Assembly (NCBI GenBank): GCA_021155885.1
Contig: JAJNBB010000001.1
Coordinates: 5,698-69,697, forward strand
DNA: 64,000 nt
Reading direction: 5' to 3'
From: Fibrobacteria bacterium
GTDB lineage: Bacteria > Fibrobacterota > Fibrobacteria > UBA11236
Under the pieces are notes generated by a model. It saw only the letters and a program-made list of their open reading frames with translations. It was not told the DNA's origin and did not search any database. Position 1 is the stretch's first letter. Each line of letters starts with the position of its first letter. Both the position numbers and the translations under genes were made by a program. Shown piece after piece: positions 20,792 through 62,165 of the stretch.

Positions 20792-20892
20792 TGTCCAACC
20801 CCCCAATTCCTCCCTCAAAGCCCCTGAATTCCTTCATGCTGGACATACCCGGAGGCAAAGGTTATCTTGGGTTTTTCTTCTGAAAACGACAT

Positions 20893-21729: not shown

Positions 21730-21779
21730 GGACGGCCGGGAAAGGGCATAGCGTTCCAATCCGTGTGTCTCCGGATGCA

Positions 21780-21880: not shown

Positions 21881-21884
21881 CCGT

Positions 21885-23350: not shown

Positions 23351-23364
23351 TTATCTTATCCCCC

Positions 23365-27265: not shown

Positions 27266-27332
27266 TTGGCAGGAAGCGCAATCGCTAATTCCAGGTGAGT
27301 CGCGGTATTTTTGCGTACCGCCAGCCGCCCGT

Positions 27333-28559: not shown

Positions 28560-28638
28560 GAAAGGAAAATAATTTAAAGCCGGCGGGTGCGGCCGCGGGC
28601 CTCAAAAGAAGCCAAAAAGAACGAAAAAAACGACCGGC

Positions 28639-29910: not shown

Positions 29911-30579
29911 TTACTTTCCTTTAGGTTCAGGGGCGGCGGAGGGCTTTTTCGTCCCGATCGCCGGGACGGGGTCCGCGGTCGCGGGCAAAGGCGTGAGGGC
30001 CTTGAGGGCGAGTTCCAGGGTCTGCAGGAGGAGCGCCTCGGTGAGGACGAACTTGCCCGCGCCCGGCAGGCTTTTCCCCTGGGTGTGGAACTTGAGGAGG
30101 TTGTAGAGCGGCGCGAAGGCCGTGGACCAGTAGACCTCGAGGGGCGCGCGCACGAGTTCCCCGCGCCGGATCGCCCCGCGCACGAAGGCCTGCATGGCCT
30201 CGCGAAAGCGCGTGCCGCCGAGCGTCAGCGCGCGCTCATGCAGCGGCGTATGCTTGAACTGCTCCTGGAAAAGCATGGAACGCGGATGCCGCATGTAGTA
30301 GCGGGCGCGGTTCAGCCATTGCACGCGCAGGCCTTCGGCGAAAGGCATCGCGGAATCGAAGCCCCGGAGCATGGCGCTGAGCGCCTTCTCCGATTCCTCC
30401 AGATAGACCTGGAGGAGAAGGTCGTCGCGGTCCTCGAAGTACACGTATAGCGTTCCCGCCGACACCTTCGCCGCGCGCGCGATCTTGTGCATGCTCAGGC
30501 CGTCGAAGCCCTCCCGGACGGCGAGCTCCATGGCCTTGCGGCGTATGAGTTTTTCCTTGCGGGGGTCGCGGGCGCGCAT
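29911..30579 (-). CDS. TetR/AcrR family transcriptional regulator
   Basis: N-terminal HTH AMELAVREGFDGLSMHKIARAAKVSAGTLYVYF. Confidence 0.85.
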   Translation of the reverse strand: MRARDPRKEKLIRRKAMELAVREGFDGLSMHKIARAAKVSAGTLYVYFEDRDDLLLQVYLEESEKALSAMLRGFDSAMPFAEGLRVQWLNRARYYMRHPRSMLFQEQFKHTPLHERALTLGGTRFREAMQAFVRGAIRRGELVRAPLEVYWSTAFAPLYNLLKFHTQGKSLPGAGKFVLTEALLLQTLELALKALTPLPATADPVPAIGTKKPSAAPEPKGK

Positions 30580-30668
30580 CGTGGCCGGAAAATATAAATA
30601 AACGAACGTTCATTTATAAATGGAGCGCCGGAAATGGCCGGCAAAGCCTGCGGCGCCGGGGCCGGGGC

Positions 30669-31544
30669 TCACCCCCCCGAATCAAACCCGGCGCCGCAGT
30701 GGGCGCAGTAGTTCGCATGGATGCTTCCCTCGTGACCGCAAACCTGGCAAACGCGGAAGGTGTCTTCCCGGGCCCCGTCCTGGTCCACCGTGCGCGCCGC
30801 CCGGGTCCATTCCGCGGAAACGATGCCTGTCGGCACGGCGATGATGGCGTAGCCGAGGATCATCGCGACGCTGGCGATCGCCTGTCCCAGCATGGTGCGC
30901 GGTACGAGGTCGCCGTAGCCCACCGTGGTGATGGTGATGATGGCCCAGTAAATTCCCTTGGGAATGCTGGTGAAGCCGGACTCCCTGCCCTCGATCAGGT
31001 ACATCAGCGCGCCCAGGCTGATGACGATCCCCGCGAGGGTGGTCAGGAACACGGTGATCTTGGGCTGGGCGCTCTTGAGGGCCAGGCCCAGCACCCGGGC
31101 CTCATCCATGTAACGCAGCAGCTTGAAGATCCGGAACAAACGGAGAAGCCGGAACATGCGGATCACGCCGAAGGCGTGCAGGCCCGGGAAGAACAGGCTG
31201 AGGTAGGTGGGGAGCACCGCCAGCAGGTCGACCATGCCGAAGAAGCTGCGCGCGTACGCCAGCCGTCTCGGCTGGGCATAGAGGCGCAACGCGTACTCCA
31301 GCGTGAAGAGCCCGGTGAAGATCCATTCCGCGATCTCGAACAGGCCGCCTCCGGCCGCGCGGATGGATTCGACGCTTTCGAGCAGCACGATGCCGACGCT
31401 GAGCAGGATGGCCCAGATCAGCACGACGTCGAACGCCCGCCCGCCCTTGGTTTCGGTTTCGAAAATGATCGTGTAAACGCGGCCGCGAAAGCCCGTGGGG
31501 CGGAGGGGAACGGAGGGGAGGACGGGTTCGGCAGGCATGGACAT
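30669..31544 (-). CDS. voltage-gated-type K+ channel with C-terminal zinc-ribbon
   Basis: Selectivity filter TTVGYGD. S4-like RMFRLLRLFRIFKLLR. C-terminal CQVCGHEGSIHANYCAHCG. Start is ambiguous (TTG 31559, ATG 31544 or ATG 31538). Confidence 0.85.
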   Translation of the reverse strand: MSMPAEPVLPSVPLRPTGFRGRVYTIIFETETKGGRAFDVVLIWAILLSVGIVLLESVESIRAAGGGLFEIAEWIFTGLFTLEYALRLYAQPRRLAYARSFFGMVDLLAVLPTYLSLFFPGLHAFGVIRMFRLLRLFRIFKLLRYMDEARVLGLALKSAQPKITVFLTTLAGIVISLGALMYLIEGRESGFTSIPKGIYWAIITITTVGYGDLVPRTMLGQAIASVAMILGYAIIAVPTGIVSAEWTRAARTVDQDGAREDTFRVCQVCGHEGSIHANYCAHCGAGFDSGG

Positions 31545-31636
31545 CAAGGTACTACACAACAGGAATGGCCCACCGGCGGCCCCGGGAGTTCTATGGGCTC
31601 CCCGGGGCCATTTGCCTGGGTTCGGGCCGCCAAGGC

Positions 31637-33493
31637 TCAGCGGAGGTCGATCAGCCTGCGGAGGCGGAAGCCCTCGCCGGTTACCTCGAGAATCGCGAAT
31701 CGCGCGGGCACGGCGCCGAGCGCCAGGGTATGTTCCCCGGTTCCTGAGGGGCTCAGTTCCGCGAGAAGGGCGCCGTTCACGCCGCGCAGCCTCACGATCG
31801 CCCTGGCCGCCGCCGGCGTCCTCACGTGGAGGTTTCCCTGGCCCACGATCCAGCGCACCTCGCCCGCGGCGGGGCTTTCGGAGAGCGGCGTCCGCAACGC
31901 CACGGGGAGATCAAAGGGAGTTCCCGTTCCCAGGGCGTTCAGCGTGTACCAGGTCTCGGTGTTCCAGGGATTGTCGCCCGTGGAGGATTTGTAATTGTTG
32001 AGCCTTATTTGCACCACGCGCATCTGGGTGGGCGTCGAGGGCACGAGGCTGTCGAGCGCGAGGAACACCTTCCGCCGGTCGGGCGAGAACAGGATGGATT
32101 TCGGAACGAGGGTTTTCGAGCCCAGTTTGCTGCCTCCGCCATAGGTGCTGTTCGGTGTCATGTGGTAGCTCTGAACGGTGTAGCTCGAGGCGAGTTTGGC
32201 GACGGCGGTATCCACGGGTTTTGTGAACTCGATTTCGAAGCCGGTCGGACGGGAGCGCACCGCCAGCATTTCAAAGGCCGGATCCCCGCCCATGAACCGC
32301 AGTTTCACGAGCCCGAAATCGACGCGTGTCGTGGTGGTCTGGCTCTTGGGGAAGCCGTCGTTATCGTTGCGGCCGCCTATCATGCCTACGTAGAGCATGC
32401 TGTCGGGACCGATGGCCATGCGGAACACGCCCGCCTCCAACCCTCCGGTGAACACGAATGCCGCCCCCTGCAGGCCACCTTGGGCGTTCTTCTCGAGGAA
32501 ATAGCGCTGGATGCCGCCCCAGCGCACGTCGCCCATGAGCATCTGGCCCGCGTAGGGCCCGAAGGTCATGTACAGCGGGGCCGTGGGCGAGTTGGCGATG
32601 TCATTATGAACGGCCCACACCGTGGGGGGCGTTTCCGTCAGGTTGTCCCACGGGGCGTAGTAGGCCGCGGCGAGGCCGCCCGATTTTTTGGCGCCGTAAA
32701 ACTTTCCCTCCTGGACGCAGATCAGCTTGTTGCCCGGCAGCCAGTCGCCCTGGTTGTCGGGCACGCAGGGCAGGCCGTCGGGACCGAAACCCAGGCCCGA
32801 GGCCGCGCGGATGCCGTTCGCCACAATCCGGAAGGCGCCGCGCTTGTCGGTGGTCCCGTTGCCGGGCGTCACTTCGAGGAGCGTGCCGCGGTGGGGGTTG
32901 GCCTGCGGGCTGCCCTGGACGCTGCCGATGGGATCCAAGGACGAGGGACTGACATACAGTTTCCCGTTTCGATGGAGCAATCCGTTGAGGTACTCCTGAC
33001 TGCCGTGCCGGGGCTTGAGAGAGTCGCTCGATCCCTCGGCGGGCGTGCCCGGGAGGATGAACACCGTGTCGACGCGGGTGACGGGGCCCGTGTTGCCGGC
33101 GCGGTTCAGGCGGATGATGGTGTTGCCGCCCGAGACGTAGAGGGTGTCGTTCACCACCGCCAGCCCCATGATGTCCTCGAGGCCGCGCGCGATGGTGTCC
33201 ATGGAGACCGCGGGCGTGGGACCGAGCACGCCGGAGAGCACGTATACCTTGCCGCTGAAGGCGCGCACGGTCTCGGTCACATTGTTGCCGCGGCTGCGCA
33301 CCGTGTCCCAGTGCGCCACCGCCAGCCGTCCGTCGGAGAGAAAGCCCATGCCGGAGACCTGCGGCTGAAAGCCCGCGGGCCGCAGCTCGATCTTCGTCCA
33401 GTTGGGGTGCACGGTGGCGGGAACCGTGGCGGGAAAAACCGGCCGCGCGAGGAGCAGGGCCGCGAATATCGATAGTTTCAGCAGGGTGCGCAT
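31637..33493 (-). CDS. secreted beta-propeller protein (sorbosone dehydrogenase/SGL-like) with C-terminal sorting-like domain
   Basis: Signal peptide MRTLLKLSIFAALLLARPVFPA. Propeller-like repeats. C-terminal ~80 aa tail ...IVRLRGVNGALLAEL...FAILEVTGEGFRLRRLIDLR. Confidence 0.7.
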   Translation of the reverse strand: MRTLLKLSIFAALLLARPVFPATVPATVHPNWTKIELRPAGFQPQVSGMGFLSDGRLAVAHWDTVRSRGNNVTETVRAFSGKVYVLSGVLGPTPAVSMDTIARGLEDIMGLAVVNDTLYVSGGNTIIRLNRAGNTGPVTRVDTVFILPGTPAEGSSDSLKPRHGSQEYLNGLLHRNGKLYVSPSSLDPIGSVQGSPQANPHRGTLLEVTPGNGTTDKRGAFRIVANGIRAASGLGFGPDGLPCVPDNQGDWLPGNKLICVQEGKFYGAKKSGGLAAAYYAPWDNLTETPPTVWAVHNDIANSPTAPLYMTFGPYAGQMLMGDVRWGGIQRYFLEKNAQGGLQGAAFVFTGGLEAGVFRMAIGPDSMLYVGMIGGRNDNDGFPKSQTTTTRVDFGLVKLRFMGGDPAFEMLAVRSRPTGFEIEFTKPVDTAVAKLASSYTVQSYHMTPNSTYGGGSKLGSKTLVPKSILFSPDRRKVFLALDSLVPSTPTQMRVVQIRLNNYKSSTGDNPWNTETWYTLNALGTGTPFDLPVALRTPLSESPAAGEVRWIVGQGNLHVRTPAAARAIVRLRGVNGALLAELSPSGTGEHTLALGAVPARFAILEVTGEGFRLRRLIDLR

Positions 33494-33556
33494 AGGCCCT
33501 AAGTTAACACAACAAGAATGGCCGCACAGATCGCAAAGATCACAAAACCCGGAACT

Positions 33557-33585
33557 AAAAAAGGGCCGCGTTTGCGGCCCTTTTT
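33557..33585 (-). terminator. rho-independent terminator of the aconitase gene
   Basis: gggccgc-gttt-gcggccc is flanked by an A-run (33557-33562) and a T-run (33581-33585). On the minus strand the hairpin is followed by TTTTTT. Confidence 0.8.
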
Positions 33586-33615
33586 ATGTGTTCTTTGTGG
33601 CGCCTTATGGTTCCC

Positions 33616-35865
33616 CTAACGCATCAAATTGAGCGCGCCGCCGGCCTTGAACCATTCGATCTGCTCCGCGTTGAACGTATGCGAGACTTCGAAGGAGTCC
33701 TGCGAGCCGTCGGCGTGCGTCAGCGTGACCGTCAGGTTCTTGCCCGGAGCGAAACCCCGCAGCCCGCTGATGTCCACCGTATCGTCCTCGCGCACCTTGT
33801 CGTAATCGGCCGGGTTCGTGAAGTGCAGCGGCAGCAGGCCCTGCTTTTTGAGGTTTGTCTCGTGGATGCGGGCGAAGCTCTTGACGATCACGGCCTTGCC
33901 GCCCAAAAAGCGCGGCGACATGGCGGCATGCTCGCGCGAGGAGCCCTCGCCGTAGTTTTCCTCGCCGAAGACCACCCACCCGATGCCCTTCGATTTGTAG
34001 TCGCGGGCGATGGCCGAGAAAGTCTTGCCGGTCTCCCCGGTGACGACGTTGGCGCCGGTGCCGATGCCGCGGCCCGCGCCCTCGAAGGCGTTGGTCGCGC
34101 CCAGGAAGGCGTTGTCGGAGATCTTGTCGAGATGGCCGCGGAACGACAGCCATTTGCCCGCGGGGGAGATGTGGTCGGTGGTGCACTTGCCCGCGGCCTT
34201 TACCAGCACGCGCGCGCCCGTGACGTCCTTGCCGTCCCACTTCGCGAAGGGGGCGAGGATCTGCAGGCGGGGGCTGTCGGGGCTGACGGCGACCTCCACC
34301 GAGGAGCCGTCCGTGGCGGGCGGCACGAAGCCGCCGTCGTTGAACTGGAATCCCGTCGGCGGCAGGGCCTCGCCGCGCGGTTCGGCAAGCTTGAAGGGCG
34401 TGCCGTCCTCGGCCGTCAGGGTGTCGGTGAGGGGGTTGAAGCGCAGGTCGCCGGCCAGCGCGTAGGCCGTGACCAGCTCGGGCGAGGCGATGAAGGCCAG
34501 CGTGGCGTTGTTGCCGTCGTTGCGCCCGCGGAAGTTGCGGTTGAACGAGGTGATGATGCTGTTCGCCCCCTCGGGCATGTCCTTGCGGTTCCATTGGCCG
34601 ATGCAGGGGCCGCAGGCGTTCGCCATCACGACGGCGCCGAGCGCGTCGAGGGTATCGAGGTAGCCGTCGCGGCGCGCGGTGTCGAACACCTGCTCGGAGC
34701 CGGGGGAGACGTAGAACTTCGACCGGGACTTGAGGCCCTTGGCCAGGGCGCTTCCGGCGATGTGGGCGGAACGGCCCATGTCCTCGTACGACGAGTTGGT
34801 GCAGGAGCCGATCAGGGCGGCGCCGAGCTGCGCGGGATAACCCTCGGCCTCGATCTCCGCCTTGAAGGCCGAGAGCGGGCGCGCCTTGTCGGGGCTGTGG
34901 GGCCCGACGATGTAGGGCTCCAGCGCGTCGAGGTCGATCGTGATCACCTCGTCGTAGTGGGCCTCGGGGTTCGCGGCGACCTCGGCGTCGGCGCGCAGCG
35001 CCGCGGCGTATTGCTCGGCCAGGTCGGCGATGTCGGCGCGGCGCGTGAGGCGCAGGTAGTCGCCCATGGCCTTGTGGTAGGGGAAGATCGAGCAGGTCGC
35101 GCCCAGTTCGGCGCCCATGTTCGTGATCGTCGCCTGCGCCGTGCAGGACAGCGACTCCACGCCGGGGCCGAAGTATTCGATCACCTTGTTCGTGCCGCCC
35201 TTCACGGTAAGGATCTCGAGCAGCTTGAGGATGACGTCCTTGCCCGAGGTCCAGCCGTTCAGCCGGCCGGTGAGGCGCACGCCCAGGACCTTGGGGTAGA
35301 GCACTTCCCAGGGCATGCCGACCATCACGTCCACGGCGTCGCCGCCGCCCACGCCGGAGGCGAACATGCCGAGGCCGCCCGCGTTGGGCGTATGCGAGTC
35401 GGTGCCGATCATCATGCCGCCCGGGAAGGCGTAGTTCTCGAGCACGACCTGGTGGATGATGCCGGAGCCCGGCTTCCAGAAGCCCATGCCGTATTTCCGG
35501 GCCGCCGAGGACAGGAACGCGAACACTTCGTTGTTAACGTGGTTGGCGATCTCCAGGTCGCGGTCGGCGCCGTCCTGGGCGATGATGAGGTGGTCGCAGT
35601 GCACCGTCGTCGGGACCGCCACCTGGGGCTTGCCCGCCTGCATGAACTGCAGGATCGCCATCTGCGCGGTCGCGTCCTGCATCGCCACGCGGTCGGGGCG
35701 CAGGAGCACGAAGGACTTGCCGCGCGTCAGCGGGCCCTGGTTCTTGTCGTCCATGTGCGACCACAGGATTTTTTCGGCGAGGGTCAGCGGACGGCCCAGC
35801 GTCTTGCGGGCATGGGCGTGGGCTTTTTCCAGGGAGGCGTACAGGGCTTTGACGTCGACTTGCAT
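33616..35865 (-). CDS. acn: aconitate hydratase (~750 aa type)
   Basis: Start at the ATG 35865 preceded by gagga. Motifs [40 protein letters not shown] and SREHAA. Confidence 0.95.
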
Positions 35866-36063
35866 TCGGGTCCTCGAAAGCCGTCCAAGACCTTTGAATT
35901 CAGGGGTTTGGAGGCGTGGGTGGGAGGCCCAAAGATAGCTTTTCACCGGGATTTCACGGGTCCAGGAAGCATGGGTCGAAGTCCGGAATTTTTACGAGAG
36001 GACGCCCGGGGCCGCTCCGGGGGCGGTCGCCGGCGCCGCTTCCGGGGCCGCTCCGCGAACGGG

Positions 36064-36612
36064 TCAGAAGGAAAGACCGGACTGGATCCCGTATTTAAGC
36101 AAAAGATGGGCTTCCTCGACATCGCCCTGATAACGGCTTCCGCCGAACAAGTTATTGGTCAAGGCGAAGCCCAGGCCGGAGACGGGCTCCACGAACCAGC
36201 TTCCGAACTTCCATTGATAGCCTATCCGGGCGTGCACGCCCAGGGTGCCTATGTTCGTGGCGCTGTTAGCCAGGGTATTGCTCCCGTTCACCCGCTCATA
36301 CACGTTGGCGCTCGCCACCGATAGGGCGCCGCCCAACCAAAGGGAGGACCGGGAAACGTTGTTGAAGTAATACTTGGCTGTCAGGGCCTGCTCCGTCCCA
36401 TAGAACGCGTAACCGTCGATTTCCCGCGCGGCCGTTCCCGTGCGGGCGAAATAAAAGGCCCATCCAAGCTTCCCGTCGAATACGGTCCGTTCCATCTCGA
36501 AGTTTTGCAAGTTCGCGACGAAAAGAGCCATCGGATCCACCGAGAACTTGGTCCGGTTCTCGGGATGGGCCAGGGCGGCGAGGAGGGTGACCAGGGGAAG
36601 AATCTTTTTCAT
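36064..36612 (-). CDS. small outer-membrane beta-barrel protein (hypothetical)
   Basis: Start at the ATG 36612 (MKKILPLVTLLAALA). Alternating beta-strand pattern with a terminal ...GIQSGLSF. Lower GC than its neighbours. Confidence 0.6.
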   Translation of the reverse strand: MKKILPLVTLLAALAHPENRTKFSVDPMALFVANLQNFEMERTVFDGKLGWAFYFARTGTAAREIDGYAFYGTEQALTAKYYFNNVSRSSLWLGGALSVASANVYERVNGSNTLANSATNIGTLGVHARIGYQWKFGSWFVEPVSGLGFALTNNLFGGSRYQGDVEEAHLLLKYGIQSGLSF

Positions 36613-37540: not shown

Positions 37541-37624
37541 GTACTCAGTAGTCGGTACTCGGTACTCGGTGAAAACACAACTCGCTTTTCGCTTTCTGAG
37601 TACAGAGTACTGAGTACCGACTAC
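37541..37624. repeat. heptamer inverted-repeat element E8 (GTACTCG family)
   Basis: Left arm gtactca gtagtcg gtactcg gtactcg g (37541-37569) starts right after the TGA at 37538-37540. 26-nt spacer. Right arm ctgagta cagagta ctgagta ccgacta c (37596-37624). About 23/29 complementary. Confidence 0.9.
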
Positions 37625-37652
37625 GTAAAACCTTTAACCCCACCGTACCCCC

Positions 37653-39308: not shown

Positions 39309-40427
39309 TCAGCCGGGTTCCTTCAGGATGCGCAGCGGCATGACGATGAAGAAATAGTTGGGGTTGTCGACCGCGGGCTCGATGACGATGGCGCCCAGCG
39401 GGTTGTTGAATTTCATGAGGATTTCCTCGCTGTTCGCCAGGCGGAGTTCCTCGAGCAGATAGGTGGCGTTCACGCCGACTTCCACCGGGTCGCCCGTGAA
39501 CTGCACCGGAATCGATTCCTCGGAATCGCCGCCCAGATCGGGGTTCTTCGCCGAAAGCTGCAGCGAGCGGTCCTGGAAGTTGAAGACCACGAGCCGGGTC
39601 TTGGAGTTGGCCATGGTCGAGACGCGGCGCAGCACCGAGATCAGCTGTTCGCGGTTGCAGCGCATCACGCGGGAGAATTCCTTCGGCACCACGTTTTCGT
39701 AGTTGGGGTAGGGGCCGTCGATGAGCTTGGTCAGGATGGTGATCGTGGGCGTGCTGAAGCGGGCCTGGGCGGCGCCGATCTCGATCTCGATTTCCTGGTC
39801 GGCGTCCTCCGCCATGCGGAGCACCTGGGTCAGGGTCTTCGGGGGAAGGATCACGCCGGGCTTGAGATTGGCGCCGGACAAGTCGATCCAGGCCTTGCCG
39901 AAACGGTGACCGTCGGTGGAGACCATGTCGAAGTGGCCGCCCTTGCCCTCGCAGTAGACGCCGGTCAGGCTCATGCGGCTGAAATCGGAGGATACGGCGA
40001 AGGCGGTCTTTTCCGCGAGGAAGCGCAGGTCCTTCAGCGGGGCGCGGAAGGCCTTGCCATGCTCGACCTCGGGCAGGGAAGGGTACTCGGAGGCGTCGTA
40101 GCCGGTCAGGTTGCCCTGGAATCCCGACTCCGACTTGATGGTGAACAGGTAGTCGTCCACCGAGACCAGCACCGGGAAGTCGGGAAGCTCCTTGACCACC
40201 TCCAGCAGCTTGCGGGCGTTGACGACGATGGCGCCGTCCTCATGGCCTTCGACCTCGAGCTTCAGCACGATGGTCATGTCGAGATCGGTGGCACGGATCT
40301 CCAGCTCGTTGCCCTTGAGCTGGAACAGGAGGTTGTAGAGGATCTGGAGCGTGGTTTTGCTGGGGATGGCGTTGCACGCCATCTGGAGGGCATCCAGGAA
40401 CACCGGTTTTTGGGCCTCGAACTTCAT
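39309..40427 (-). CDS. dnaN: DNA polymerase III beta sliding clamp
   Basis: Start at the ATG 40427 preceded by gggag. MKFEAQKPVFLDALQMACNAIPSKTTLQIL... 372 aa, the typical three-domain clamp length. Confidence 0.9.
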   Translation of the reverse strand: MKFEAQKPVFLDALQMACNAIPSKTTLQILYNLLFQLKGNELEIRATDLDMTIVLKLEVEGHEDGAIVVNARKLLEVVKELPDFPVLVSVDDYLFTIKSESGFQGNLTGYDASEYPSLPEVEHGKAFRAPLKDLRFLAEKTAFAVSSDFSRMSLTGVYCEGKGGHFDMVSTDGHRFGKAWIDLSGANLKPGVILPPKTLTQVLRMAEDADQEIEIEIGAAQARFSTPTITILTKLIDGPYPNYENVVPKEFSRVMRCNREQLISVLRRVSTMANSKTRLVVFNFQDRSLQLSAKNPDLGGDSEESIPVQFTGDPVEVGVNATYLLEELRLANSEEILMKFNNPLGAIVIEPAVDNPNYFFIVMPLRILKEPG

Positions 40428-40650
40428 GCGGCTGGCTCCCTGTTTTCTCGCTCGGAGTGTCCCGGCGGGCGCACGCCCGTGGACGGAATTTATGCCCGGG
40501 AAAGATAATCTATCGCTCCCGGAGGGTCCGGTATTCCCGTGATTTTCCATGCGCCGAAGAAAGCGCAAGATGCTAATTTTGGATGGCCCAACCGTTTTCC
40601 CCCCGCAGTTCGCCGAGTCCACGGCCGGGGGAATCAGGAGAGTCCGAAGC

Positions 40651-41838
40651 ATGATTATTGAGCCGAAAATCCGGGGATTTCTATGCACCACCGCGCATCC
40701 CGAGGGATGCCGAGCCGGGGTCGAAGAGCAGATCCGGTACGTCCAAAAGGGCGGCATGATCCCGGGGGGGGCGAAAAAAGCCCTGATTATCGGCGCCTCC
40801 ACCGGCTATGGCCTCGCGTCGCGCATCGTCGCCGCCTTCGGCTGCGGCGCCGACACCCTGGCGGTGTCCTTCGAGCGTCCCTCCGAGCGCGATCGGACGG
40901 CTTCGCCGGGGTGGTACCAGACCAAGGCGCTGGAAGAAGCCGCCCGCAAGGCGGGCCTGTACGCCGAAAGCTTCAACGGCGACGCCTTCTCGAATGAAAT
41001 GAAGGACCAGGTGATCGCCGAGCTGAAAAAAAACGTGGGTCCGGTCGATCTCTTCGTCTACAGCCTGGCCTCGCCCCGCCGCACGCATCCCGTGACCGGC
41101 ATCGCCTACCGCTCCACCCTGAAGCCGATCGGCGCCTCCTACACCAACAAGACCCTCGACTTCAACACCGGCGTCGTCAGCGAGGTCACTCTCGATCCCG
41201 CGACCCCCGAGGAAGTGGAGCACACGATCCAGGTGATGGGCGGCGAGGACTGGGAGATGTGGACCGACCGCCTGATCCGGGAGGGCCTGCTGGCCCCCGG
41301 CGCGAAGGTGCTGGCTTATTCCTACATCGGCCCCGACGTCACCCAGCCCGTCTACCGCAACGGCACCATCGGCGCGGCGAAGGATCATCTCGAGGCGACG
41401 GCGCACCGCCTCCACGACAAGGTGAAGGCCTCCGGCGGTTCCGCCCACGTCTCCGTCAACAAGGCCCTGGTCACCCAGGCCAGCTCCGCCATCCCCTTCA
41501 TGCCGCTCTACATCAGCATCCTGTACAAGGTGATGAAGGAAAAAGGCATCCACGAAGGGTGCATCGAGCAGATGGACCGCCTCTTCCGCGACCGCCTGTA
41601 CAAGGGCGGGCCCGGGGCCGCCATCGAAACGGACGAAAAGGGCCGCATCCGCGTCGACGACTGGGAGATGCGCGAGGACGTGCAGGCCGAGGTGAAGCGC
41701 CTGTGGCCGCAGGTGAACACCGAGAACCTGGCCAAGTGGGCGGACGGCACCGGGTACCGCGACGACTTCCTGCGCCTGTTCGGGTTCGGCATCGACGGCG
41801 TGGATTACGCCGCCGACGTTCCCGAAGACAAGATCTAG
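40651..41838 (+). CDS. fabV: trans-2-enoyl-CoA/ACP reductase (NADH)
   Basis: ATG after caggag. MIIEPKIRGF.CTTAHP.GC... is the characteristic FabV N-terminus, and IGASTGYGLA is also present. 395 aa. Confidence 0.9.
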   Translation: MIIEPKIRGFLCTTAHPEGCRAGVEEQIRYVQKGGMIPGGAKKALIIGASTGYGLASRIVAAFGCGADTLAVSFERPSERDRTASPGWYQTKALEEAARKAGLYAESFNGDAFSNEMKDQVIAELKKNVGPVDLFVYSLASPRRTHPVTGIAYRSTLKPIGASYTNKTLDFNTGVVSEVTLDPATPEEVEHTIQVMGGEDWEMWTDRLIREGLLAPGAKVLAYSYIGPDVTQPVYRNGTIGAAKDHLEATAHRLHDKVKASGGSAHVSVNKALVTQASSAIPFMPLYISILYKVMKEKGIHEGCIEQMDRLFRDRLYKGGPGAAIETDEKGRIRVDDWEMREDVQAEVKRLWPQVNTENLAKWADGTGYRDDFLRLFGFGIDGVDYAADVPEDKI

Positions 41839-44445: not shown

Positions 44446-44456
44446 AAAGCATACAA

Positions 44457-44515
44457 GACGGGGGACGGGGGACGGGGGACAATAGACTCCCGACCTCCGT
44501 CCCGCGGAGCGTCCC
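44457..44515. repeat. heptamer inverted-repeat element E9 (GACGGGG family)
   Basis: Left arm is 3 x gacgggg + gac (44457-44480), ~8-nt loop, right arm ctcccga cctccgt cccgcgg agcgtccc (44487-44515). Hand pairing gives a stem of about 19 bp including G-U pairs. Lies between sdhA and sdhB. Confidence 0.85.
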
Positions 44516-55364: not shown

Positions 55365-56689
55365 GGGTTCTCCACGGGCGCGGAAGGTTGGACGGGGACG
55401 GCCAGCGCGCCCGCGAGGCGCTTGAGGGCCAGTTCCGAAAGCTTCGCCGACTGGCGCGCGGTCGCGAGGCGGCTTTGCGCGCTCAGCAATTTCTGCTGGG
55501 CGTCGCGAAATTCAAGGGAAGACGACGAACCCACCCGGAAGCGCTCCCGCGCGGCCTCGGCCTGACGCCGCGCCACCTCGAGGTTGCCCTCTTCCAGCGC
55601 GATCTGCCGCAGGCCGAGGACATACCGCCCCTCCGCCTGCTCGAAGTCCGCGCGAACCTGGGCCTCGCTTTGCTTCAGGAGGGTTTCCTGGCGGCGCAGG
55701 CCGATGCGGCTGCCGACCACGTTCTGCCGCGTCCGCAGGCCGTCGAACAAGGGGATCGAAAGGCTCACGCTATAGGTCAGCGCGTCGGATGCCGTGACGG
55801 TGCCGGCGCCCCCGCCGTTCACCAGGGAATCCAGCGAGGTCCGGTAAGCCAGCCCCGCGGAAACGGTGGGGGAGTAGCCGCCGCGCGCCTCGCGCAGCGA
55901 GGTTTCCGAAGCGCTCCGCTGCAGGCGCGCCTCGCGCAGCGTGGTGTTGTTTTGCAAGAGCGCGCCGCGCCACGCGGCCACCGGCAGCGCGGGCTCCACC
56001 GGGATGGTGTCCTCCACGTCGAAAGGCTCGGCGGGGTCCCGCGCCAGCAACTGGTTCAACCGGACCTTGGCCTCGCGCAGGGACATCTCCTGGGACAGCA
56101 ACGAGGAAGAGTCGGCGTTGAGGTCGGCCTGCGATTGCAATTGTTCCAGGCGCGAGCCCGCGCCCACCTGCAGGCGCGCTTCGGCCAGGGCGGCGCGCTG
56201 GCGCGAGACGGCCAGCAATTCGCGCAACGCCGCGATCTGCCGCTTCTGGGTGGCGATGGCGTAATAGGAACTTAGGACCGATTCCAGCGTGGCCTCCACC
56301 GCCAGCTGCTCCTGCAAGCCCGCGGCGGTCTCCTGGGTCTTCAGGCGCTGGTAGGCGTAGTATGACTGGAAGCCGTTGAAAAGCTGGAGGTTCACCGAGG
56401 CCCCGGCGCTGTTCGAGGTGCCGGATCCGGGGTGCAATTCCCCGGTGTGGGTCGCCGAGGCCGAAGCGGTGGGCAAAAAAGGCCCCACGCCCGCGAGGCG
56501 GCTGCCCGCCGCCAGGTCGCGCTGGTCACGCGCGAGGGCGATCGAATAATTGTTTTGCAAGCCAAGGCGCACGGCCTCGTCCGGCGTCAGCAGGGATCCC
56601 GTTCGCGCGGAATCCGCGGCGGAAACGCCGAAGAACGCCAGCAGGCACAGCCCCAGGCTTTGCGTCCGGCGCGGGAAAAAGCTCTTCAT
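55361..56689 (-). CDS. TolC-family outer-membrane efflux protein
   Basis: Signal peptide. Two internal repeats of the coiled-coil/beta pattern typical of TolC/OEP. 442 aa. Confidence 0.85.
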   Translation of the reverse strand: MKSFFPRRTQSLGLCLLAFFGVSAADSARTGSLLTPDEAVRLGLQNNYSIALARDQRDLAAGSRLAGVGPFLPTASASATHTGELHPGSGTSNSAGASVNLQLFNGFQSYYAYQRLKTQETAAGLQEQLAVEATLESVLSSYYAIATQKRQIAALRELLAVSRQRAALAEARLQVGAGSRLEQLQSQADLNADSSSLLSQEMSLREAKVRLNQLLARDPAEPFDVEDTIPVEPALPVAAWRGALLQNNTTLREARLQRSASETSLREARGGYSPTVSAGLAYRTSLDSLVNGGGAGTVTASDALTYSVSLSIPLFDGLRTRQNVVGSRIGLRRQETLLKQSEAQVRADFEQAEGRYVLGLRQIALEEGNLEVARRQAEAARERFRVGSSSSLEFRDAQQKLLSAQSRLATARQSAKLSELALKRLAGALAVPVQPSAPVENP

Positions 56690-56778
56690 GACGGATTCAT
56701 TTTCGAAACGGGCCTCGGAACCGGAATAATGGATAATCGGGCTGCGCGGGCCGGCGGTACGACCCGAGCGGAATCGGG

Positions 56779-57309
56779 TTACTTCTTGTGGGATTCTTTT
56801 TCCGCCTTTTCGCGGTGTTCGGCGCGGCGCCTTTCCAGAAGGTCCGCCAGCTTCAGGCGCTGGGCCCGCGTCAGAACGCCGTGCACCTGCGCGAACTTGA
56901 AGACCATCTTATCGTGACGCGCGCGCATGCGCTGCTGGCGCTCGTTGAAACCCTGCGCCAAAGCCGCGGTATCCACCTTGTCGGCTTTCAGCTGATCCAG
57001 GAATTCCTCCCCGAACGGAAACATGCCCCCATGCGGGGCGCCCGGGCGGCGGCCGTGGTGCGGGCCGGCGCCCATGCCCATTTCGAAATGTTCCATCACG
57101 AGCGTGTCGCTCTGCAGGATTTCCCGCACCTGGGCCGCCTGGACCGGCGAGAGGCTCAACTCTTTTTCCATCCAGGCGACGAAGCGTTCGTGATGCTTCC
57201 CGGGTTCATGGCCACGCGCGGGCTTGTCCGCCGCCCCTGGGGAAGACAAAAGGTTTGTAACAGTCAGGGCCATCAAGAACACCTGTGTAACACGAAGGCG
57301 CAGAAACAT
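56779..57309 (-). CDS. Spy/CpxP-family periplasmic protein
   Basis: Signal peptide. Two LTxxQ-type motifs (LSPVQAAQV and LTRAQRLKL). Helical and charged, 176 aa. Confidence 0.65.
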   Translation of the reverse strand: MFLRLRVTQVFLMALTVTNLLSSPGAADKPARGHEPGKHHERFVAWMEKELSLSPVQAAQVREILQSDTLVMEHFEMGMGAGPHHGRRPGAPHGGMFPFGEEFLDQLKADKVDTAALAQGFNERQQRMRARHDKMVFKFAQVHGVLTRAQRLKLADLLERRRAEHREKAEKESHKK

Positions 57310-57662: not shown

Positions 57663-58316
57663 GTGGAATTCGAGGGGTCGCGGGCTGAATTGCGGGCCTT
57701 GCAGAGGCGCAATCGTCCCGAAACATCGACCGGGTATTCTAAAGGCATGAAGAGTCAACAACTTACCCGGGAAACACGGATGATTTCCACACGCTCCTCC
57801 CACCCGAATTTTCCTCCCTGCGCGCACGAGGCCTTCACGTTGGACTGGGTCCAGGACGGATCGGCCGCTTTCCTTCAGGTACCGCCGCTCAACCCGCTTC
57901 GCCGCCTCTCCGGGTCGGGCCTGGCTTTGCCGACCGGCACGCTGGTTTGCCGCGTCGAGGCCGACGGTCTCCCGGCGGGAGGCTGCGCGGTGGCCTTCCC
58001 GCGGCAAGACGACGCCCCTTCGCCCCGGCATCTGCCGCATCCGGTGCTCGGCGAATGGATCAGCGCGCTGCGCTACACGGGTTGCTCCTGGATCGAGGCG
58101 GGCGTGTTCGCGGTGAACCCGGGTTTCTCCGAGGAGCAGGTACTGGACGCCCTTTGGAGCGGGCTCGAACGCCTGATGAAGCGGAACGGCGTGAACTTTC
58201 TGGTGGGCGCCGCGCCCGAGTCCTCTTTGGCGTTGGACCGGGCGCTGCGGCAGGGCGCTCGCGCGCTCGAACCTTCGGCGCCGGGGGCGTTGCGGTACTT
58301 CGTGTACGCGGTGTGA
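57663..58316 (+). CDS. hypothetical protein (possibly acyltransferase-like)
   Basis: Coding-like GC3 bias in the 3' two-thirds. Start is uncertain (57663, 57747 or 57780). No motif recognised with confidence. Confidence 0.45.
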   Translation: MEFEGSRAELRALQRRNRPETSTGYSKGMKSQQLTRETRMISTRSSHPNFPPCAHEAFTLDWVQDGSAAFLQVPPLNPLRRLSGSGLALPTGTLVCRVEADGLPAGGCAVAFPRQDDAPSPRHLPHPVLGEWISALRYTGCSWIEAGVFAVNPGFSEEQVLDALWSGLERLMKRNGVNFLVGAAPESSLALDRALRQGARALEPSAPGALRYFVYAV

Positions 58317-58326
58317 GGATAGGGAA

Positions 58327-58443
58327 GTTGTTGGTTGTTCGTTGTTGGTAAAGAGTTAGGGCGGCCGGGTGGCCGCCTTGAATAATGGAAAGCAAAAGGC
58401 TCCTCGGGCGCCGAATTGCATCCAACAACCAACAACCAACAAC
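58327..58443. repeat. heptamer inverted-repeat element E10 (GTTGTTG family)
   Basis: Left arm gttgttg gttgttc gttgttg gtaa (58327-58351). Spacer has an inner hairpin ggcggcc-gggt-ggccgcc (58361-58378). Right arm is 3 x ccaacaa + c (58422-58443), 27 nt before the thyA ATG. Confidence 0.9.
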
Positions 58444-58470
58444 TTTCCCGCCTTTCCTACCTTTTCCCCC

Positions 58471-59289
58471 ATGCGCGCCTATCTCGACCAGCTTCGCGAA
58501 ATCCTTGAAAACGGTGAGAAAAAAGAGGACCGGACCGGCACGGGAACGGTTTCGCTGTTCGGGATGCAGGCCAAGTACGACCTCCGCGAGGGCTTTCCGC
58601 TCGTCACCACCAAGAAGGTGTTGTTCGACGCGGTGGTGTATGAACTGCTGTGGTTCCTGCGCGGCAGCACCAACATCAACGACGACCTCGTGCAGCATAC
58701 GCCGATCTGGAACGCCTGGGCCGATCCCGACGGCGAGCTGGGGCCCATTTACGGCCATCAGTGGCGGGCGTGGCCGCGCTACGTCGAGGCTCCGGAGGGA
58801 AACGGGCTGTACCGCAAGGAACCCGTCGACCAGATCCGCGAGGTGATCGACCAGATCCAAAAGAACCCCGACTCGCGCAGGCTGATCGTCTCGGCCTGGA
58901 ACGTGTCGGACATCCCGAAGATGAAGCTCCCGCCGTGCCACGCCTTCTTCCAGTTCTACGTCGTGGGCGGCCGGCTGGATCTGCAACTGTACCAGCGCTC
59001 CGCCGACATGGCCCTGGGCGTGCCGTTCAACATCGCCAGCTACGCCCTGCTGCTCCAGATGATCGCGCAGGAATGCGGCCTCACCCCGGGCGTCTTCGTG
59101 CACACGCTGGGCGACGCGCACATCTACCTCAACCATCTCGACGGCATCCGCGAGCAACTCAGGCGCGAACCGCTCCCGCTGCCCACCGTGCGCATCGCGA
59201 ACAAGCCCCTGTTCGACCTCAAGTTCGAGGACATCGAGCTCGTGGGGTACAAGCACCTGCCCTTTATCAAGTTTCCGGTGGCGGTGTGA
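58471..59289 (+). CDS. thyA: thymidylate synthase
   Basis: [40 protein letters not shown] and DAHIYLNH motifs. 272 aa. Confidence 0.95.
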
Positions 59290-59882
59290 GCGAAGAAACG
59301 TCCAAGGGTTTTTCCATTGTCGTCGCGATGGACAAGAACCGCGGGATCGGCAACCAGGGCGGCCTGCCGTGGCCCAAACTCAAGGGGGACATGAAGTTCT
59401 TCCGTGACCTCACGACGAATCCCGACCGGGCCGTGGCGGAGGTATCTCACGGGTTACCCTCCGGCGGGGAGCCCGTCACCTATTCCGACGAGACCTGCAA
59501 TGCCGTCCTGATGGGCCGCAAGACCTGGGAAAGCCTTCCGGCCGCCTACCGCCCGCTGCCCGGCCGCCTGAACGGCATCTTGTCGCGCGCGGGCCTGGAC
59601 GTCGGGGAAGACGCCGAAGTCTGGGAGTCACTGGACCGCGCGCTCGAGGACCTGGACGATACCGACGCCCTGGGAGGCTTGTTCGTGATCGGCGGCGCCC
59701 AGATTTTCGCCGCCGCGCTCGCGCACCCCGACTGCCTCCGCTTGTACGTCACCGAGATCGATGCGGAGTTTGCCTGCGACACCTTCTTCCCGGCCACCCC
59801 CGACTTCATTCCCAAGGCCTCCTCGGATTGGAAGGAAGAGAACGGGTTACGATACCGTTTCCGGCGTTACGAGCGGTGGTAG
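59286..59882 (+). CDS. folA: dihydrofolate reductase
   Basis: The GTG start overlaps the thyA stop (GTGA). [30 protein letters not shown] and VIGGAQIF motifs. Confidence 0.85.
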
Positions 59883-59893
59883 GGGCGGGGAGC

Positions 59894-60107
59894 GTTGGGG
59901 GTTGGTGGTTGGGAGTTGGGGGTTAGCACAAACTTCGGCTTCCTTCCCGCGAAGCGTGGATCCCCGCCTGCGCGGGGATGAGGTGGTGGGTGCATCCCCT
60001 GCGGCGTGGGTCCCCGCCTACGCGGGGATGACGATGTAGTTCGCGCCCCTCCTCCAGGCGGGCACCAGCCCGCCGTGACTCCCACCACCAACCACCAACC
60101 ACCAACG
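59894..60107. repeat. heptamer inverted-repeat element E11 (GTTGGGG/GTTGGTG family) with nested palindromic repeats
   Basis: Left arm gttgggg gttggtg gttggga gttgggg gtt (59894-59924). Right arm ccaccac caaccac caaccac caacgac (60081-60107). ~156-nt spacer carries two 30-nt palindromic repeats. Confidence 0.9.
59954..60033. repeat. two direct copies of a 30-nt palindrome-containing repeat (REP-like; resembles type I-E CRISPR repeats)
   Basis: gcgtggatccccgcctgcgcggggatgagg (59954-59983) and gcgtgggtccccgcctacgcggggatgacg (60004-60033) are 27/30 identical. Each has the stem tccccgc/gcgggga with a 4-nt loop. They are separated by 20 nt. Confidence 0.8.
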
Positions 60108-60143
60108 ACGAAGTATGGCCCACAGAGAGTAAATTTTCCCATC

Positions 60144-61541
60144 ATGGCCCTCCGGAAACTCGAAACCCAGCTGCTGTACCCCGAATTCGTGCAGGCCGTG
60201 GAAACGGGCGACACGGAGGCGCTGGAGGCTTTGCGCGAACACCTGACGATGGAGGACATCGCGGAGCTGGTGGGAGAGCTGGAGGGGCCGGGCCGCGCGG
60301 ATTTCCTGAGCAAGGTTCCCGCGACCGAGGCGGCGGAGATTTTTCAGCAGTTGGATCTGACGGCGCAGCGCGAGACGCTGGACCTGCTTTCGACCTCGCG
60401 CATGGCGGGCATCATCAACGAGATGGATCCCGACGATCGCACGGCGCTGCTGGAGACGCTGCCGTCCCACAACACCAAGAGCCTGCTGAGCTTCCTGCGC
60501 CCGCGCGAGCGCGCGCAGGCGCAAAAGCTGCTGGATTTCCCCGAGGACAGCGTGGGCCGCCTGATGACGCCCGACTTTTTGGCCATCCGCAAGGAATGGA
60601 CGGTGGGCCGTTCGCTGGATTTCATCCGCTTCAACGGCGAGGACAAGGAAACCCTGAACGACATCTACGTGGTGGACCGCCAGGGCAAGCTGCTGGACGA
60701 CATCCCCATCCGCGAGTTCCTGCTGTCGCCGGGAGATCGCGCCATCGCGGACGTGATGGACGGGCACTACACGGCCCTGCTCGCCACCGCGCCGCAGGAA
60801 GAGGCCATCCAGGCCTTCAAGAAGTACAGCGCGCGCACGGCGCTGCCCGTGGTGGACGAGGAAGGTTTGCTCCTTGGCATCGTGACGATCGACGATATCC
60901 TGCACCTCGAGGAAAAGGAGACCACCGAGGACATCCAGAAGTTCGGCGGCGCGGCCCCCCTGGAGGAATCGTACCTCGAGGTTTCGTTCTGGAGCATGCT
61001 GCGCAAGCGCAGCGTGTGGCTGATCGTGCTGTTCTTCGGCCAGATGCTGACCGCCTCGGCGATGAGCTTCTACCAGATGGAAATCAGCAAGGCCGTCGTG
61101 CTGGCGCTGTTCATCCCCCTCATCATCAGCAGCGGCGGCAACTCCGGATCGCAGGCGGCCACACTGGTGATCCGCGCCCTCGCGCTGGGGGAGGTGGCCT
61201 TCACCGACGTGTGGAAGGTCCTGCGCCGCGAACTCCTCGTCGGGCTCGGCATGGGCCTCATCCTGGGCGTGATCGGGCTGTTGCGCGTTGTCCTGTGGGG
61301 CACCGCGTTCCAGTCCTACGGAGACCATTACCTCACCCTGGGTCTCGCCGTGGGCGTGGCGGTGATCAGCGTGGTCGCCTGGGGCAACATCGTCGGCTCC
61401 ATGCTCCCGCTGGTGCTCAAGCGCCTCGGACTCGATCCCGCGACCTCCTCCGCCCCCTTCGTGGCCACCTTCATCGACGTCACGGGGATCGTCATCTATT
61501 TCAACATCGCCTTGCTGGTGATGAGCGGGCGGTTGTTTTAG
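60144..61541 (+). CDS. mgtE: magnesium transporter MgtE
   Basis: N-domain, tandem CBS region (LPVVDEEGLLLGIVTIDDIL) and C-terminal TM domain with GGNSGSQ. 465 aa from the ATG at 60144. Confidence 0.9.
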   Translation: MALRKLETQLLYPEFVQAVETGDTEALEALREHLTMEDIAELVGELEGPGRADFLSKVPATEAAEIFQQLDLTAQRETLDLLSTSRMAGIINEMDPDDRTALLETLPSHNTKSLLSFLRPRERAQAQKLLDFPEDSVGRLMTPDFLAIRKEWTVGRSLDFIRFNGEDKETLNDIYVVDRQGKLLDDIPIREFLLSPGDRAIADVMDGHYTALLATAPQEEAIQAFKKYSARTALPVVDEEGLLLGIVTIDDILHLEEKETTEDIQKFGGAAPLEESYLEVSFWSMLRKRSVWLIVLFFGQMLTASAMSFYQMEISKAVVLALFIPLIISSGGNSGSQAATLVIRALALGEVAFTDVWKVLRRELLVGLGMGLILGVIGLLRVVLWGTAFQSYGDHYLTLGLAVGVAVISVVAWGNIVGSMLPLVLKRLGLDPATSSAPFVATFIDVTGIVIYFNIALLVMSGRLF

Positions 61542-61545
61542 GAAA

Positions 61546-61648
61546 GTTGTCGGTACTTAGTTGTTGGTTGTTGGTGAACGCAATTCTCTTCCTTTGACGC
61601 CACCCGGCCGTCGGCCTATCCGATTACCAACAACTAACAACCAACAAC
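61546..61648. repeat. heptamer inverted-repeat element E12 (GTTGTTG family)
   Basis: Left arm gttgtcg gtactta gttgttg gttgttg gtg (61546-61576) begins 4 nt after the mgtE TAG. Right arm ttaccaacaactaacaaccaacaac (61624-61648) ends 10 nt before the ATG at 61659. Confidence 0.9.
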
Positions 61649-61658
61649 CCGCAATTTT

Positions 61659-62165
61659 ATGCATCCTCACGTCCCCTTCGACCTAACTCCCTACCTGGCT
61701 TCGCTCGCCCCCGCCTCCCGCGTCCTCGACCTGGGGTCGGGCACGGGGAGGCGGGCGGAGGCTCTCCGGAGCGCCGGCTTTCGCGTATGCGCGCTGGACC
61801 TCGATGTGGACGCCCTGTCCACCGCCCGCTCCCTGTATCCGGGCCTGGCCGCCTGCGCCGGCCGGGCCGAGGCGCCTCCGTTCGCCGCGGCTGTATTTGA
61901 CGGGGTCGTGTGCATCGACGTCCTGCACTGGTGCGCGGACGCGACGGCGTTCGAAGCGGCCTGGAAGGGAGCGTGGGAGGTATTGCGTCCCGGGGGGGTA
62001 TTCTTCGCGCGCCTGCGGACGCGGGAGTTCGCCCCGGAATCCGAAGGCTGGTTTCTGGCGGACCGCAGGCTGCTCGAAGAGCTGGCGGCGCGCGTCGGGG
62101 GAGAGTGGCTTCCGACCCTCACCCGGGACGGGGACTCGGTTATTTTCCTTTTAAGGAAACCTTAG
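61659..62165 (+). CDS. class I SAM-dependent methyltransferase
   Basis: Motif I VLDLGSGTGRRA, then an acidic residue ending beta-2 (ALDLD). 168 aa. Confidence 0.8.
   Translation: MHPHVPFDLTPYLASLAPASRVLDLGSGTGRRAEALRSAGFRVCALDLDVDALSTARSLYPGLAACAGRAEAPPFAAAVFDGVVCIDVLHWCADATAFEAAWKGAWEVLRPGGVFFARLRTREFAPESEGWFLADRRLLEELAARVGGEWLPTLTRDGDSVIFLLRKP

Follow-up and report, generated by a model that had tools for sequence, protein, structure and literature searches.

The closest published analogue of the elements described here comes from Xanthomonas campestris and X. axonopodis (Xcc and Xac), in which GGGAATC heptamers form arrays that can be convergent; 183–186 such arrays are present per genome, about 90% of them intergenic and mostly between co-directional genes, with 70–75 cases per genome arranged as convergent pairs; these arrays lie near the upstream open reading frame (ORF), are reported to be transcribed, vary between Xcc and Xac and are of unknown function (Rehm et al. 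2015, PLoS One, PMC4692102). We analysed a 64-kb stretch of DNA of a Fibrobacteria bacterium (contig JAJNBB010000001.1; hereafter the window, meaning the whole stretch), an organism placed among uncultured freshwater and soil Fibrobacterota lineages represented by metagenome-assembled genomes. In this window, three intergenic elements, E10, E11 and E12, each with a left (L) and a right (R) arm built of heptamers, lie around the genes thyA, folA and mgtE. The resemblance to Xanthomonas is close: there are at least two heptamers per array, the pairing is convergent, the location is intergenic near the end of the upstream ORF, and the polarity, a G-rich plus strand followed by a G-rich minus strand, is the one that the paired Xanthomonas arrays always display. 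Xanthomonas, however, has essentially one heptamer with a GGG tract (GGGANTN) and G-quadruplex potential, whereas at least eight heptamers are found here and E10 and E12 are devoid of G-tracts; in addition, nearly all arrays of the window are paired, neighbouring elements share asymmetric interiors, which reveals paralogy, and the host belongs to the Fibrobacterota. What sets the present case apart from known heptamer repeats is the many types per genome, mostly without G-tracts, the near-universal pairing and the demonstrable paralogy of neighbours.

Heptamers form the most abundant class of long simple sequence repeats (SSRs) in many genomes (Mrazek et al. 2007, as cited in PMC4679880 and PMC4692102), and the cyanobacterial short tandemly repeated repetitive (STRR) heptamers STRR1–3 and the TAACTGA repeats are further intergenic examples with coexisting families, for which slippage has been proposed (PMC4679880, PMC4692102). 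As far as these two sources describe them, long SSRs and STRRs are direct arrays for which a complementary partner is not a defining feature, whereas the elements of the window are hairpin-forming pairs. They also differ from slipping SSRs in that the near-identical strains compared here show no unit-number polymorphism. ERIC/IRU, Correia (CREE) and other palindromes resembling MITEs (MITE, miniature inverted-repeat transposable element) are imperfect, transcribed intergenic sequences of 100–200 bp, often found after stop codons and present or absent at orthologous sites, which form long stems that serve as substrates of RNase III and influence both the stability of the adjoining cistrons and their translation. 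Such families possess a conserved full-length consensus and defined terminal inverted repeats, with TA target duplications in the case of Correia, whereas here, within the 64 kb of the window, only the architecture is conserved, the heptamer arms have many sequences and no target-site duplications are seen by eye. Finally, the RNase III stems flanking 16S and 23S rRNA join complementary sequences 1.5–3 kb apart, are conserved and covarying, and enclose untranslated RNA; the long-range pairing considered below is permitted by the minimum free energy (MFE) fold, but it is strain-specific and the RNA it encloses encodes three proteins.

An earlier note on this DNA had interpreted the similarity of L10 and R12 as part of nested inverted-repeat brackets around thyA–folA–mgtE. 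We favour, with a probability of roughly two in three, the reading that the L10/R12 match is a by-product of paralogous GTTGTTG-type copies lying in opposite orientation, which belong to an abundant lineage-specific class of palindromes, and not the sign of a functional bracket. Genes can come to lie in "nested brackets" as a structural by-product, and such brackets should not be taken for operon punctuation.

Arms and interiors of E10, E11 and E12

The arms fill the spacers as follows: (i) the left arm of E10 (58322–58351; GGGAA followed by GTTGTTG GTTGTTC GTTGTTG GTAA) begins 6 nt past the upstream stop codon (58314–58316) and its right arm (58419–58448; three CCAACAA units followed by CTTTCC) ends 23 nt upstream of the thyA ATG; (ii) the left arm of E11 (59893–59923) reads GTTGGGG GTTGGTG GTTGGGA GTTGGGG and its right arm (60081–60107; three CCACCAA units) ends 37 nt upstream of the mgtE ATG; (iii) the left arm of E12 (61541–61580; GAAA GTTGTCG GTACTTA GTTGTTG GTTGTTG GTGAA) begins at the mgtE stop codon and its right arm (61621–61652; TTACC AACAACT AACAACC AACAACC) ends 7–11 nt upstream of the ATG (61659) of a class I methyltransferase gene (61659–62165). 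Period-7 arrays were detected at 58419–58444, 60081–60109 and 61629–61649, among others, and the left arms comprise three to four units. The enclosed genes, all on the plus strand, are thyA (thymidylate synthase, 58471–59289; PF00303, E = 7.6e-113), folA (dihydrofolate reductase, DHFR, 59286–59882; PF00186), whose start overlaps the thyA stop codon, and mgtE (Mg2+ transporter, 60144–61541; Pfam profile match).

The matches on which the bracket was built are real. L10 (58327–58351, GTTGTTGGTTGTTCGTTGTTGGTAA) agrees with the reverse complement of R12 (61624–61648, GTTGTTGGTTGTTAGTTGTTGGTAA) at 24 of 25 positions, and ungapped extension carries the pair to 37 nt with 84% complementarity; complementarity between R10 and L12 reaches 100% across 17 nt (58428–58444 with 61559–61575); and E11 does belong to a related family, of GTTGG[G/T]G type, with 27-nt arms (59893–59919/60081–60107) that are 85% complementary. 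Two points have to be qualified. The outer match includes the GGTAA end, as the earlier note had it, but not the irregular unit, which is the sole mismatch (C vs A); this A in R12 is compensated inside E12, where L12 carries A at the corresponding position. Likewise, the outer pair exceeds the local pairs only marginally, with 24/25 (96%, score 23) for L10/R12 against 25/27 (93%, score 23) for the 27-nt arms of E10 (left arm vs 58422–58448) and 20/23 (87%) for the local arm pair of E12. The 13-mer GTTGTTGGTTGTT, with up to two mismatches, occurs 11 times in the window, every time in E10–E12, compared to 0.39 times in shuffles. Judging from the sequences, the informative similarity between E10 and E12 is that of the GGTAA junction and the interior, rather than that of the arm repeats.

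The interiors carry an asymmetric marker, a GC-rich hairpin. In E10, it adjoins the left arm (GGCGGCC-GGGT-GGCCGCC, 58360–58377) and has a minus-strand match in locus L145; in E11, it lies immediately 5' of the right arm (GGCGGGC-ACCA-GCCCGCC, 60057–60074) and is kept in the relatives L001, L147 and L148; in E12, the E10 module is found on the opposite strand, adjoining the right arm (GACGCC-ACCC-GGCCGTC, 61597–61613). The exact 12-mer CGGCCGGGTGGC is present in two copies in the 64 kb, at 58362 on the plus strand, 11 nt inside L10, and at 61599 on the minus strand, 13 nt inside R12. Whole-element local alignment of E10 with E12 scores higher in the inverted than in the direct orientation (27 vs 19.5), the similarity running past the arms. 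In a multiple alignment, the left half of E10, once reverse-complemented, proves homologous to five right halves, those of E11, of E12, of the E11-site elements of L001 and L147 and of the E10-site element of L147, the common module consisting of the hairpin GGCGGnCACCnGnCCGCC (GGCGGnC-ACCn-GnCCGCC), 5–14 nt and the C-rich arm. This hairpin motif is confined to the present locus among the 151 loci compared (designated by handles such as L001), and GAATTGC adjoins the other arm in both E10 and E12. Since the 12-mer occurs only twice, on opposite strands, E10 is an inverted paralogue of E12; it is inverted relative to E11 as well.

This relationship accounts for the arm matches: the advantage of the outer over the local pairing follows from E10 being an inverted copy of an imperfect palindrome. 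By descent, one copy's left arm then equals the other copy's right arm in reverse complement, and the outer and inner cross-pairs are necessarily at least as good as the local pairs. The idea that such elements duplicate or convert as units thus finds support in the inverted alignment and in the shared asymmetric hairpin. Within the window, sequence is shared by the pairs E10/E12 (plus the E11 module), Ec/Ed and Ea/Eb (see below), the remaining pairs scoring at background.

We propose that the elements would spread and replace one another as units. Spacers that bear hairpins could undergo ectopic gene conversion or recombination with each other, or a transposition-like process could be at work, and the arms would afterwards change independently through heptamer slippage; homologous recombination of whole alleles would contribute too (in L001, thyA is 99% identical and the flanks 95%). 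On polycistronic transcripts, each element would form, co-transcriptionally, its own stem of 20–35 bp between cistrons, which, by analogy, could plausibly act as an RNase III processing site or a 3'-end stabilising hairpin, and which may in addition occlude the G-free leader of the gene that follows. This functional part of the model is weakly supported. For annotation, they serve as markers of intercistronic hairpins with a possible influence on mRNA processing.

Heptamer palindromes in the window and in relatives

E10–E12 belong to a set of at least 11 intergenic inverted repeats in the window that share one architecture while differing in their heptamers: a 5' arm of 2–7 tandem heptamers, G-rich and nearly C-free, an interior of 25–160 nt and a 3' arm of complementary heptamers. 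The arms, which are terminal inverted repeats, measure 23–45 nt, are 73–93% complementary, and do not have the same number and order of units on the two sides of an element. The polarity is uniform: a G-rich 5' arm is matched by a C-rich, nearly G-free 3' arm in all window elements, on either strand, and in 7/7 metagenome inverted pairs of GTTGTTG pattern, with none in the opposite sense. Seven is by far the commonest period among arrays of period 5 or more (8 arrays, whereas no other period between 5 and 12 exceeds 3). Left arms begin 0–10 nt from a stop codon in seven of the eight strongest elements (about 47 nt in Ec) and right arms end 7–37 nt before the next start codon, each element taking up essentially the whole spacer and leaving a C/T-rich leader with no Shine–Dalgarno sequence. 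All elements fold into long hairpins that exceed shuffled sequences in stability (z = -1.9 to -8.7). At least eight different heptamers coexist within the 64 kb; G-tracts are limited to E11, Eg and Eh, and GTTGTTG has no run of three or more G.

The other members are Ea (1933–2036; GGTAGGA type), whose first unit shares bases with the stop codon TGA; Eh (12495–12643; GTTGAGG/GTTGGGG type), in a divergent spacer; Eb (17996–18168; GGTAGGA/CCTACTA type), with the stop codon TAG within the first unit; Ec (21776–21882; GATGAAT-type arms), between accD and a folC-like gene; Ed (23252–23356; GATGAAT type), after that same gene; Ee (27241–27331; GGCGGCA type), a weaker element in a convergent spacer; Ef (37541–37625; GGTACTC/GTAGTCG type); and Eg (44455–44515; three GACGGGG units plus a partial complement), also weaker. 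Their neighbours are unrelated housekeeping genes without link to folate or Mg2+, encoding a radical SAM enzyme, a ThiL-like protein, UppP, AccD, the FolC-like protein, an FkbM methyltransferase, a phosphoribosyltransferase and SdhA/B. Ec and Ed form a second nested bracket, around the single folC-like gene (21885–23273): they align better inverted than direct (25.5 vs 20), and the left arm of Ec and the reverse complement of the right arm of Ed share 23 consecutive identities (AAATGATGAATGCGGAATGATGA) and 27/31 positions in the full alignment. A neighbour pair on the unrelated metagenome contig L116 behaves similarly (inverted 28.5 vs direct 22). Perfect clustering of heptamer types along the window was considered and rejected (permutation P = 0.14).

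The phylogenetic comparison speaks against a conserved bracket. Ten relatives or more keep the order thyA–folA–mgtE–methyltransferase, with MgtE identity falling as low as 72%, while the spacers are not conserved, the same spacers holding other heptamer types, solo arms or nothing. At the E10 site, GTTGTTG in the window is replaced by GGGAACA in L001 (flanks 95–99% identical), GGGTAGA in L147 and L148 (MgtE 88%), AAATGAG in L005 (80%) and GGAATGAAG in L149 (82%, divergent spacer), with no element in L151, L007 and L008. At the E12 site, the window again has GTTGTTG, L001 has GTTGGGG, L152 (MgtE 96% identical) has GTACTCG/GTAGTCG, which is the type of Ef at 37.5 kb in the window, and L147 has AACATGA; L153, L005, L151, L007 and L008 have no element. 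At the E11 site, a full element is found in the window, a solo right arm with its hairpin in L001, L147 and L152, and a full GTTGGTG-type element in L006. Heptamer types thus turn over at fixed spacers and recur at different sites between strains. Complementarity of the L10/R12 type was sought in L001, L152, L147, L005, L149 and L151 and is absent from all of them, which makes it, on this sampling, strain-specific. Other long-range complementarities enclose other genes, namely thyA–folA in L147 and mgtE in L001, and in both these relatives the local pairs are more stable than the long-range ones.

On shorter timescales the elements are stable. Three further assemblies of the strain (99.7–99.95% identical) have base-identical elements in the same orientation, and contingency-locus behaviour on short timescales is rejected by the lack of unit-number polymorphism among these near-identical assemblies. 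Exact look-ups of ThyA and of the FolC-like protein returned same-strain contigs only. Heptamer arrays are over-represented in many bacterial genomes; with its coexisting types, its strict polarity, its replacement of whole spacers between strains whose flanks are 95–99% identical and its paralogous neighbours, the lineage offers a richer natural experiment on how such palindromes are generated and copied.

Several further features were noted at this locus in the relatives. The 3' half of folA (3761–4304 in L001 vs 59402–59882 in the window) cannot be aligned though the MgtE proteins are identical, and the DHFRs of the two strains differ in length (219 aa and 198 aa); the locus in L001 and the window appears to be a recombination mosaic with breakpoints at or near elements. 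Solo heptamer arrays with no inverted partner occur in L149 (8185–8225), L151 (8060–8090), L005 (8090–8111) and L006 (4819–4855): ACTGTRA, GAYAGCT and TTMACTG arrays lie downstream of a terminator in the convergent methyltransferase/DUF6588 spacer and a GAGCGGA array lies downstream of the thyA stop codon, G-rich arrays being placed after stop codons and C-rich ones before start codons. In the folA–mgtE spacer, L006 has six tandem repeats of about 37 nt (CCCTGTTGTTGGTGACTTCCCTGCAGCCCTTA; 5630–5830) directly upstream of its GTTGGTG-type element, and L147, an 88% relative in which this spacer reaches 520 nt, has a large near-perfect palindrome (GGGGTGATCCTGAAATTCC ... GGAATTTCAGGATCACCCC; 5709–5835) beside REP-like hairpins. 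Metagenome contigs also end about 10–85 nt from elements: L002 starts 9 nt past E10 (window 58457), L003 starts 83 nt before E11 (window 59810) and L152 ends inside the left arm of its E12-site element. It may be that the elements, or the polymorphism they show between strains, cause assemblies to break.

Alternative explanations

Several observations weigh against inverted paralogy as the whole explanation of the L10/R12 match, or against the mechanism that we attach to it. In L001, thyA is 99% identical and the flanks 95%, the 3' half of folA being unalignable, and the replacement of whole spacers there could represent homologous recombination with a divergent strain, not element mobility. 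No target-site duplications were noticed at E10, E12, Ec and Ed on inspection by eye, short of a systematic search, and the GGGAA/TTTCC flanks belong to the stem; nor was any transposase, recombinase or invertase family found in a Pfam scan of 44 ORFs, comprising one ORF from L001 and 43 from the window outside 51.4–57.3 kb. The sharing of heptamer type by neighbours is only suggestive (window permutation P = 0.14, with Eh at 12.5 kb included; in the pooled data, 6/16 adjacent pairs share a type, P ~0.01–0.08 depending on the assumed background). The three same-type neighbour pairs examined are all inverted (P = 0.125 under random orientation), and there may be a systematic inverted-neighbour rule, hence some function of inverted pairing. 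The MFE fold of the 3.38-kb RNA (58300–61680) pairs L10 with 61624–61650 and R10 with 61553–61580, and the L10:R12 and R10:L12 duplexes (-45.4 and -37.7 kcal/mol) are more stable than the local ones (-40.2 and -33.4 kcal/mol). Finally, stability and G–U counts show no bias between sense and antisense strands (sense more stable in 10/16 elements), so that an RNA-level role is without direct support.

A more far-reaching possibility, which we regard as unlikely, is that the palindromes form a family held together by structure, not by sequence, in which a dedicated mechanism fills intergenic slots with heptamer types drawn on a genome-wide pool, always with G-rich-5' polarity. Copies would preferentially arise as inverted neighbours, and genes would come to lie within local and long-range stems that compete and tune how polycistronic mRNA is processed. 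Candidate mechanisms for the filling of slots are hairpin-templated conversion, fold-back synthesis with a 7-nt step and an unrecognised mobility enzyme.

It could also be that E10 and E12 arose by independent slippage of one heptamer and that the 24/25 match merely reflects a common (GTTGTTG)n consensus. The consensus alone does account for 21 of the 25 matching positions, and the 22-mer GTTGTTGGTTGTTNGTTGTTGG is present in more than 120 unrelated metagenome stretches, mainly unrelated low-GC repeats, with inverted pairs in 7/120 stretches; L087 even has the identical A-containing unit, and the "irregular" position is the mismatch. Such a coincidence is nevertheless improbable, as it leaves aside the shared GGTAA junction, the 12-mer hairpin core, which is set 11–13 nt inward of the matching arms and is absent from the rest of the 64 kb, the GAATTGC beside the other arm in both elements, and the module alignment, which favours common descent.

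Another reading is that each heptamer type is a classical MITE, a non-autonomous element with tandem-heptamer terminal inverted repeats to which a cognate transposase binds, inserting it in either orientation. The terminal inverted repeats, the size (85–215 bp) and the intergenic location fit this description, as do presence/absence and type replacement at orthologous sites, the finding of the same type at different sites between strains and the occurrence of both orientations. At least eight unrelated arm sequences in 64 kb would, however, require equally many transposases, none of which is found among the 44 ORFs; no target-site duplications are visible by eye; the arms of one element are unlike in unit number and order, as independent slippage predicts; and solo arms and solo arrays are common. 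We consider that a MITE origin in this strict sense has little chance of being correct.

A functional long-range RNA pairing, with L10:R12 and R10:L12 enclosing thyA–folA–mgtE in a 3.3-kb loop as one mRNA unit, is still less probable. Its appeal lies in the MFE fold, which selects both pairs with a total advantage of about 9.5 kcal/mol over the local ones, and in the similar energetics of Ec/Ed (outer duplex -43.4 vs local -34.4 and -38.1 kcal/mol). A scan for sigma-70 promoters and intrinsic terminators, the coverage of which does not extend to promoters of Fibrobacteres–Chlorobi–Bacteroidetes (FCB) type, found none in the E10, E11 and E12 spacers, which is compatible with co-transcription; canonical terminators were predicted elsewhere in the window (14586–14625 and 20757–20793). 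Yet inverted duplication predicts identical energetics without any function, the complementarity is missing from every relative examined despite the kept gene order, the local pairs are more stable in L147 and L001, and the enclosed genes vary between these two. Each element modelled alone folds as its own hairpin; such local hairpins (-33 to -40 kcal/mol) would form first during transcription, leaving the long-range pairs kinetically disfavoured, and the enclosed region is translated. The earlier suggestion that pairing delimits a folate/Mg2+ gene block is thus not supported: the gene order is kept without the bracket and the class flanks unrelated genes.

Least probable of all is a DNA switch in which the 25–37-bp L10/R12 repeats invert the 3.3-kb block or the arms of an element flip their own interior (a mini-inverton): the 37-nt inverted repeat (84%) might serve as its substrate, and arm-to-arm recombination could produce the inverted interior of E10 relative to E11, E12 and the same-site element of L147, but a single block orientation is seen in the window, the three other same-strain assemblies and all relatives (in assemblies, not raw reads), the elements are base-identical across independent assemblies, no invertase or recombinase is found among the 44 ORFs, and a flipped thyA–folA–mgtE block would be cut off from any upstream promoter.

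Other identities of the elements were considered and set aside. A Mg2+ riboswitch (M-box) upstream of mgtE is rejected for want of a match to an Rfam covariance model; at the gathering threshold, Rfam reports two tRNAs only in the window, and at E <= 1 a single match in 58250–61750, a chance miRNA hairpin. E10–E12 are not intrinsic terminators, none being predicted within them. Termination–reinitiation coupling, by which stop and start codons would be joined at the base of the stem, is weakened by the L149 element and Eh, which lie in divergent spacers with no upstream stop. The heptamers do not provide stop codons in all three frames as a general rule, GTTGTTG, GTTGGTG and GGTACTC having none. 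The resemblance to telomere-like G-rich addition is formal only, and the many different units argue against a fixed template. REP/BIME identity is also rejected for E10–E12, whose arms are heptamer arrays without GTAG/CGTC-type tags.

REP-like guests and other features of the window

Two REP-like hairpins (TCCCCGCCTGCGCGGGGATGA, 50-nt period; 59958–60035) are nested within the E11 loop; they are guests there, not part of the element proper. Hairpins of this kind (GTCATTCCCGCrnAGGCGGGAA) are also found in heptamer-element loops of L001 (4300–4790), L147 (5500–5640) and L152 (80–200) and in the interior of L028. In L001, a gene for a 100-aa GIY-YIG nuclease (4356–4658, minus strand) lies directly beside them, and, going by this proximity, hairpin and nuclease may form a mobile unit that targets the loops.

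Heptamer elements occupy 9 of about 13 (+,+) spacers and none of the six (-,-) spacers of at least 78 nt (28559–28639, 30579–30669, 31559–31637, 33493–33616, 35946–36064 and 56689–56779). The cumulative GC skew rises along the window, and, on this small sample, the elements may have a preference for gene arrays on the leading strand. Dense heptamer arrays, some of them inverted pairs of several types, are present in L033 (GC 0.49), L038 (GC 0.58) and L050 (GC 0.37), metagenome contigs of different base composition, given which multi-type heptamer palindromes may extend beyond this Fibrobacterota lineage.

A G-free motif, TAnnTTT(C)CCCCC-ATG, without Shine–Dalgarno sequence, precedes the ATGs at 18176, 36716, 37653, 45349, 58471 and 60144 and is likewise found before start codons in L001, L005, L147, L149 and L151; it resembles the Bacteroidota -7 box TAnnTTTG or a leader that works independently of a Shine–Dalgarno sequence. 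Finally, the window contains two tRNA genes on the minus strand and, on the same strand, dnaN (DNA polymerase III beta subunit) with no adjacent dnaA (11174–11363 and 39309–40802).

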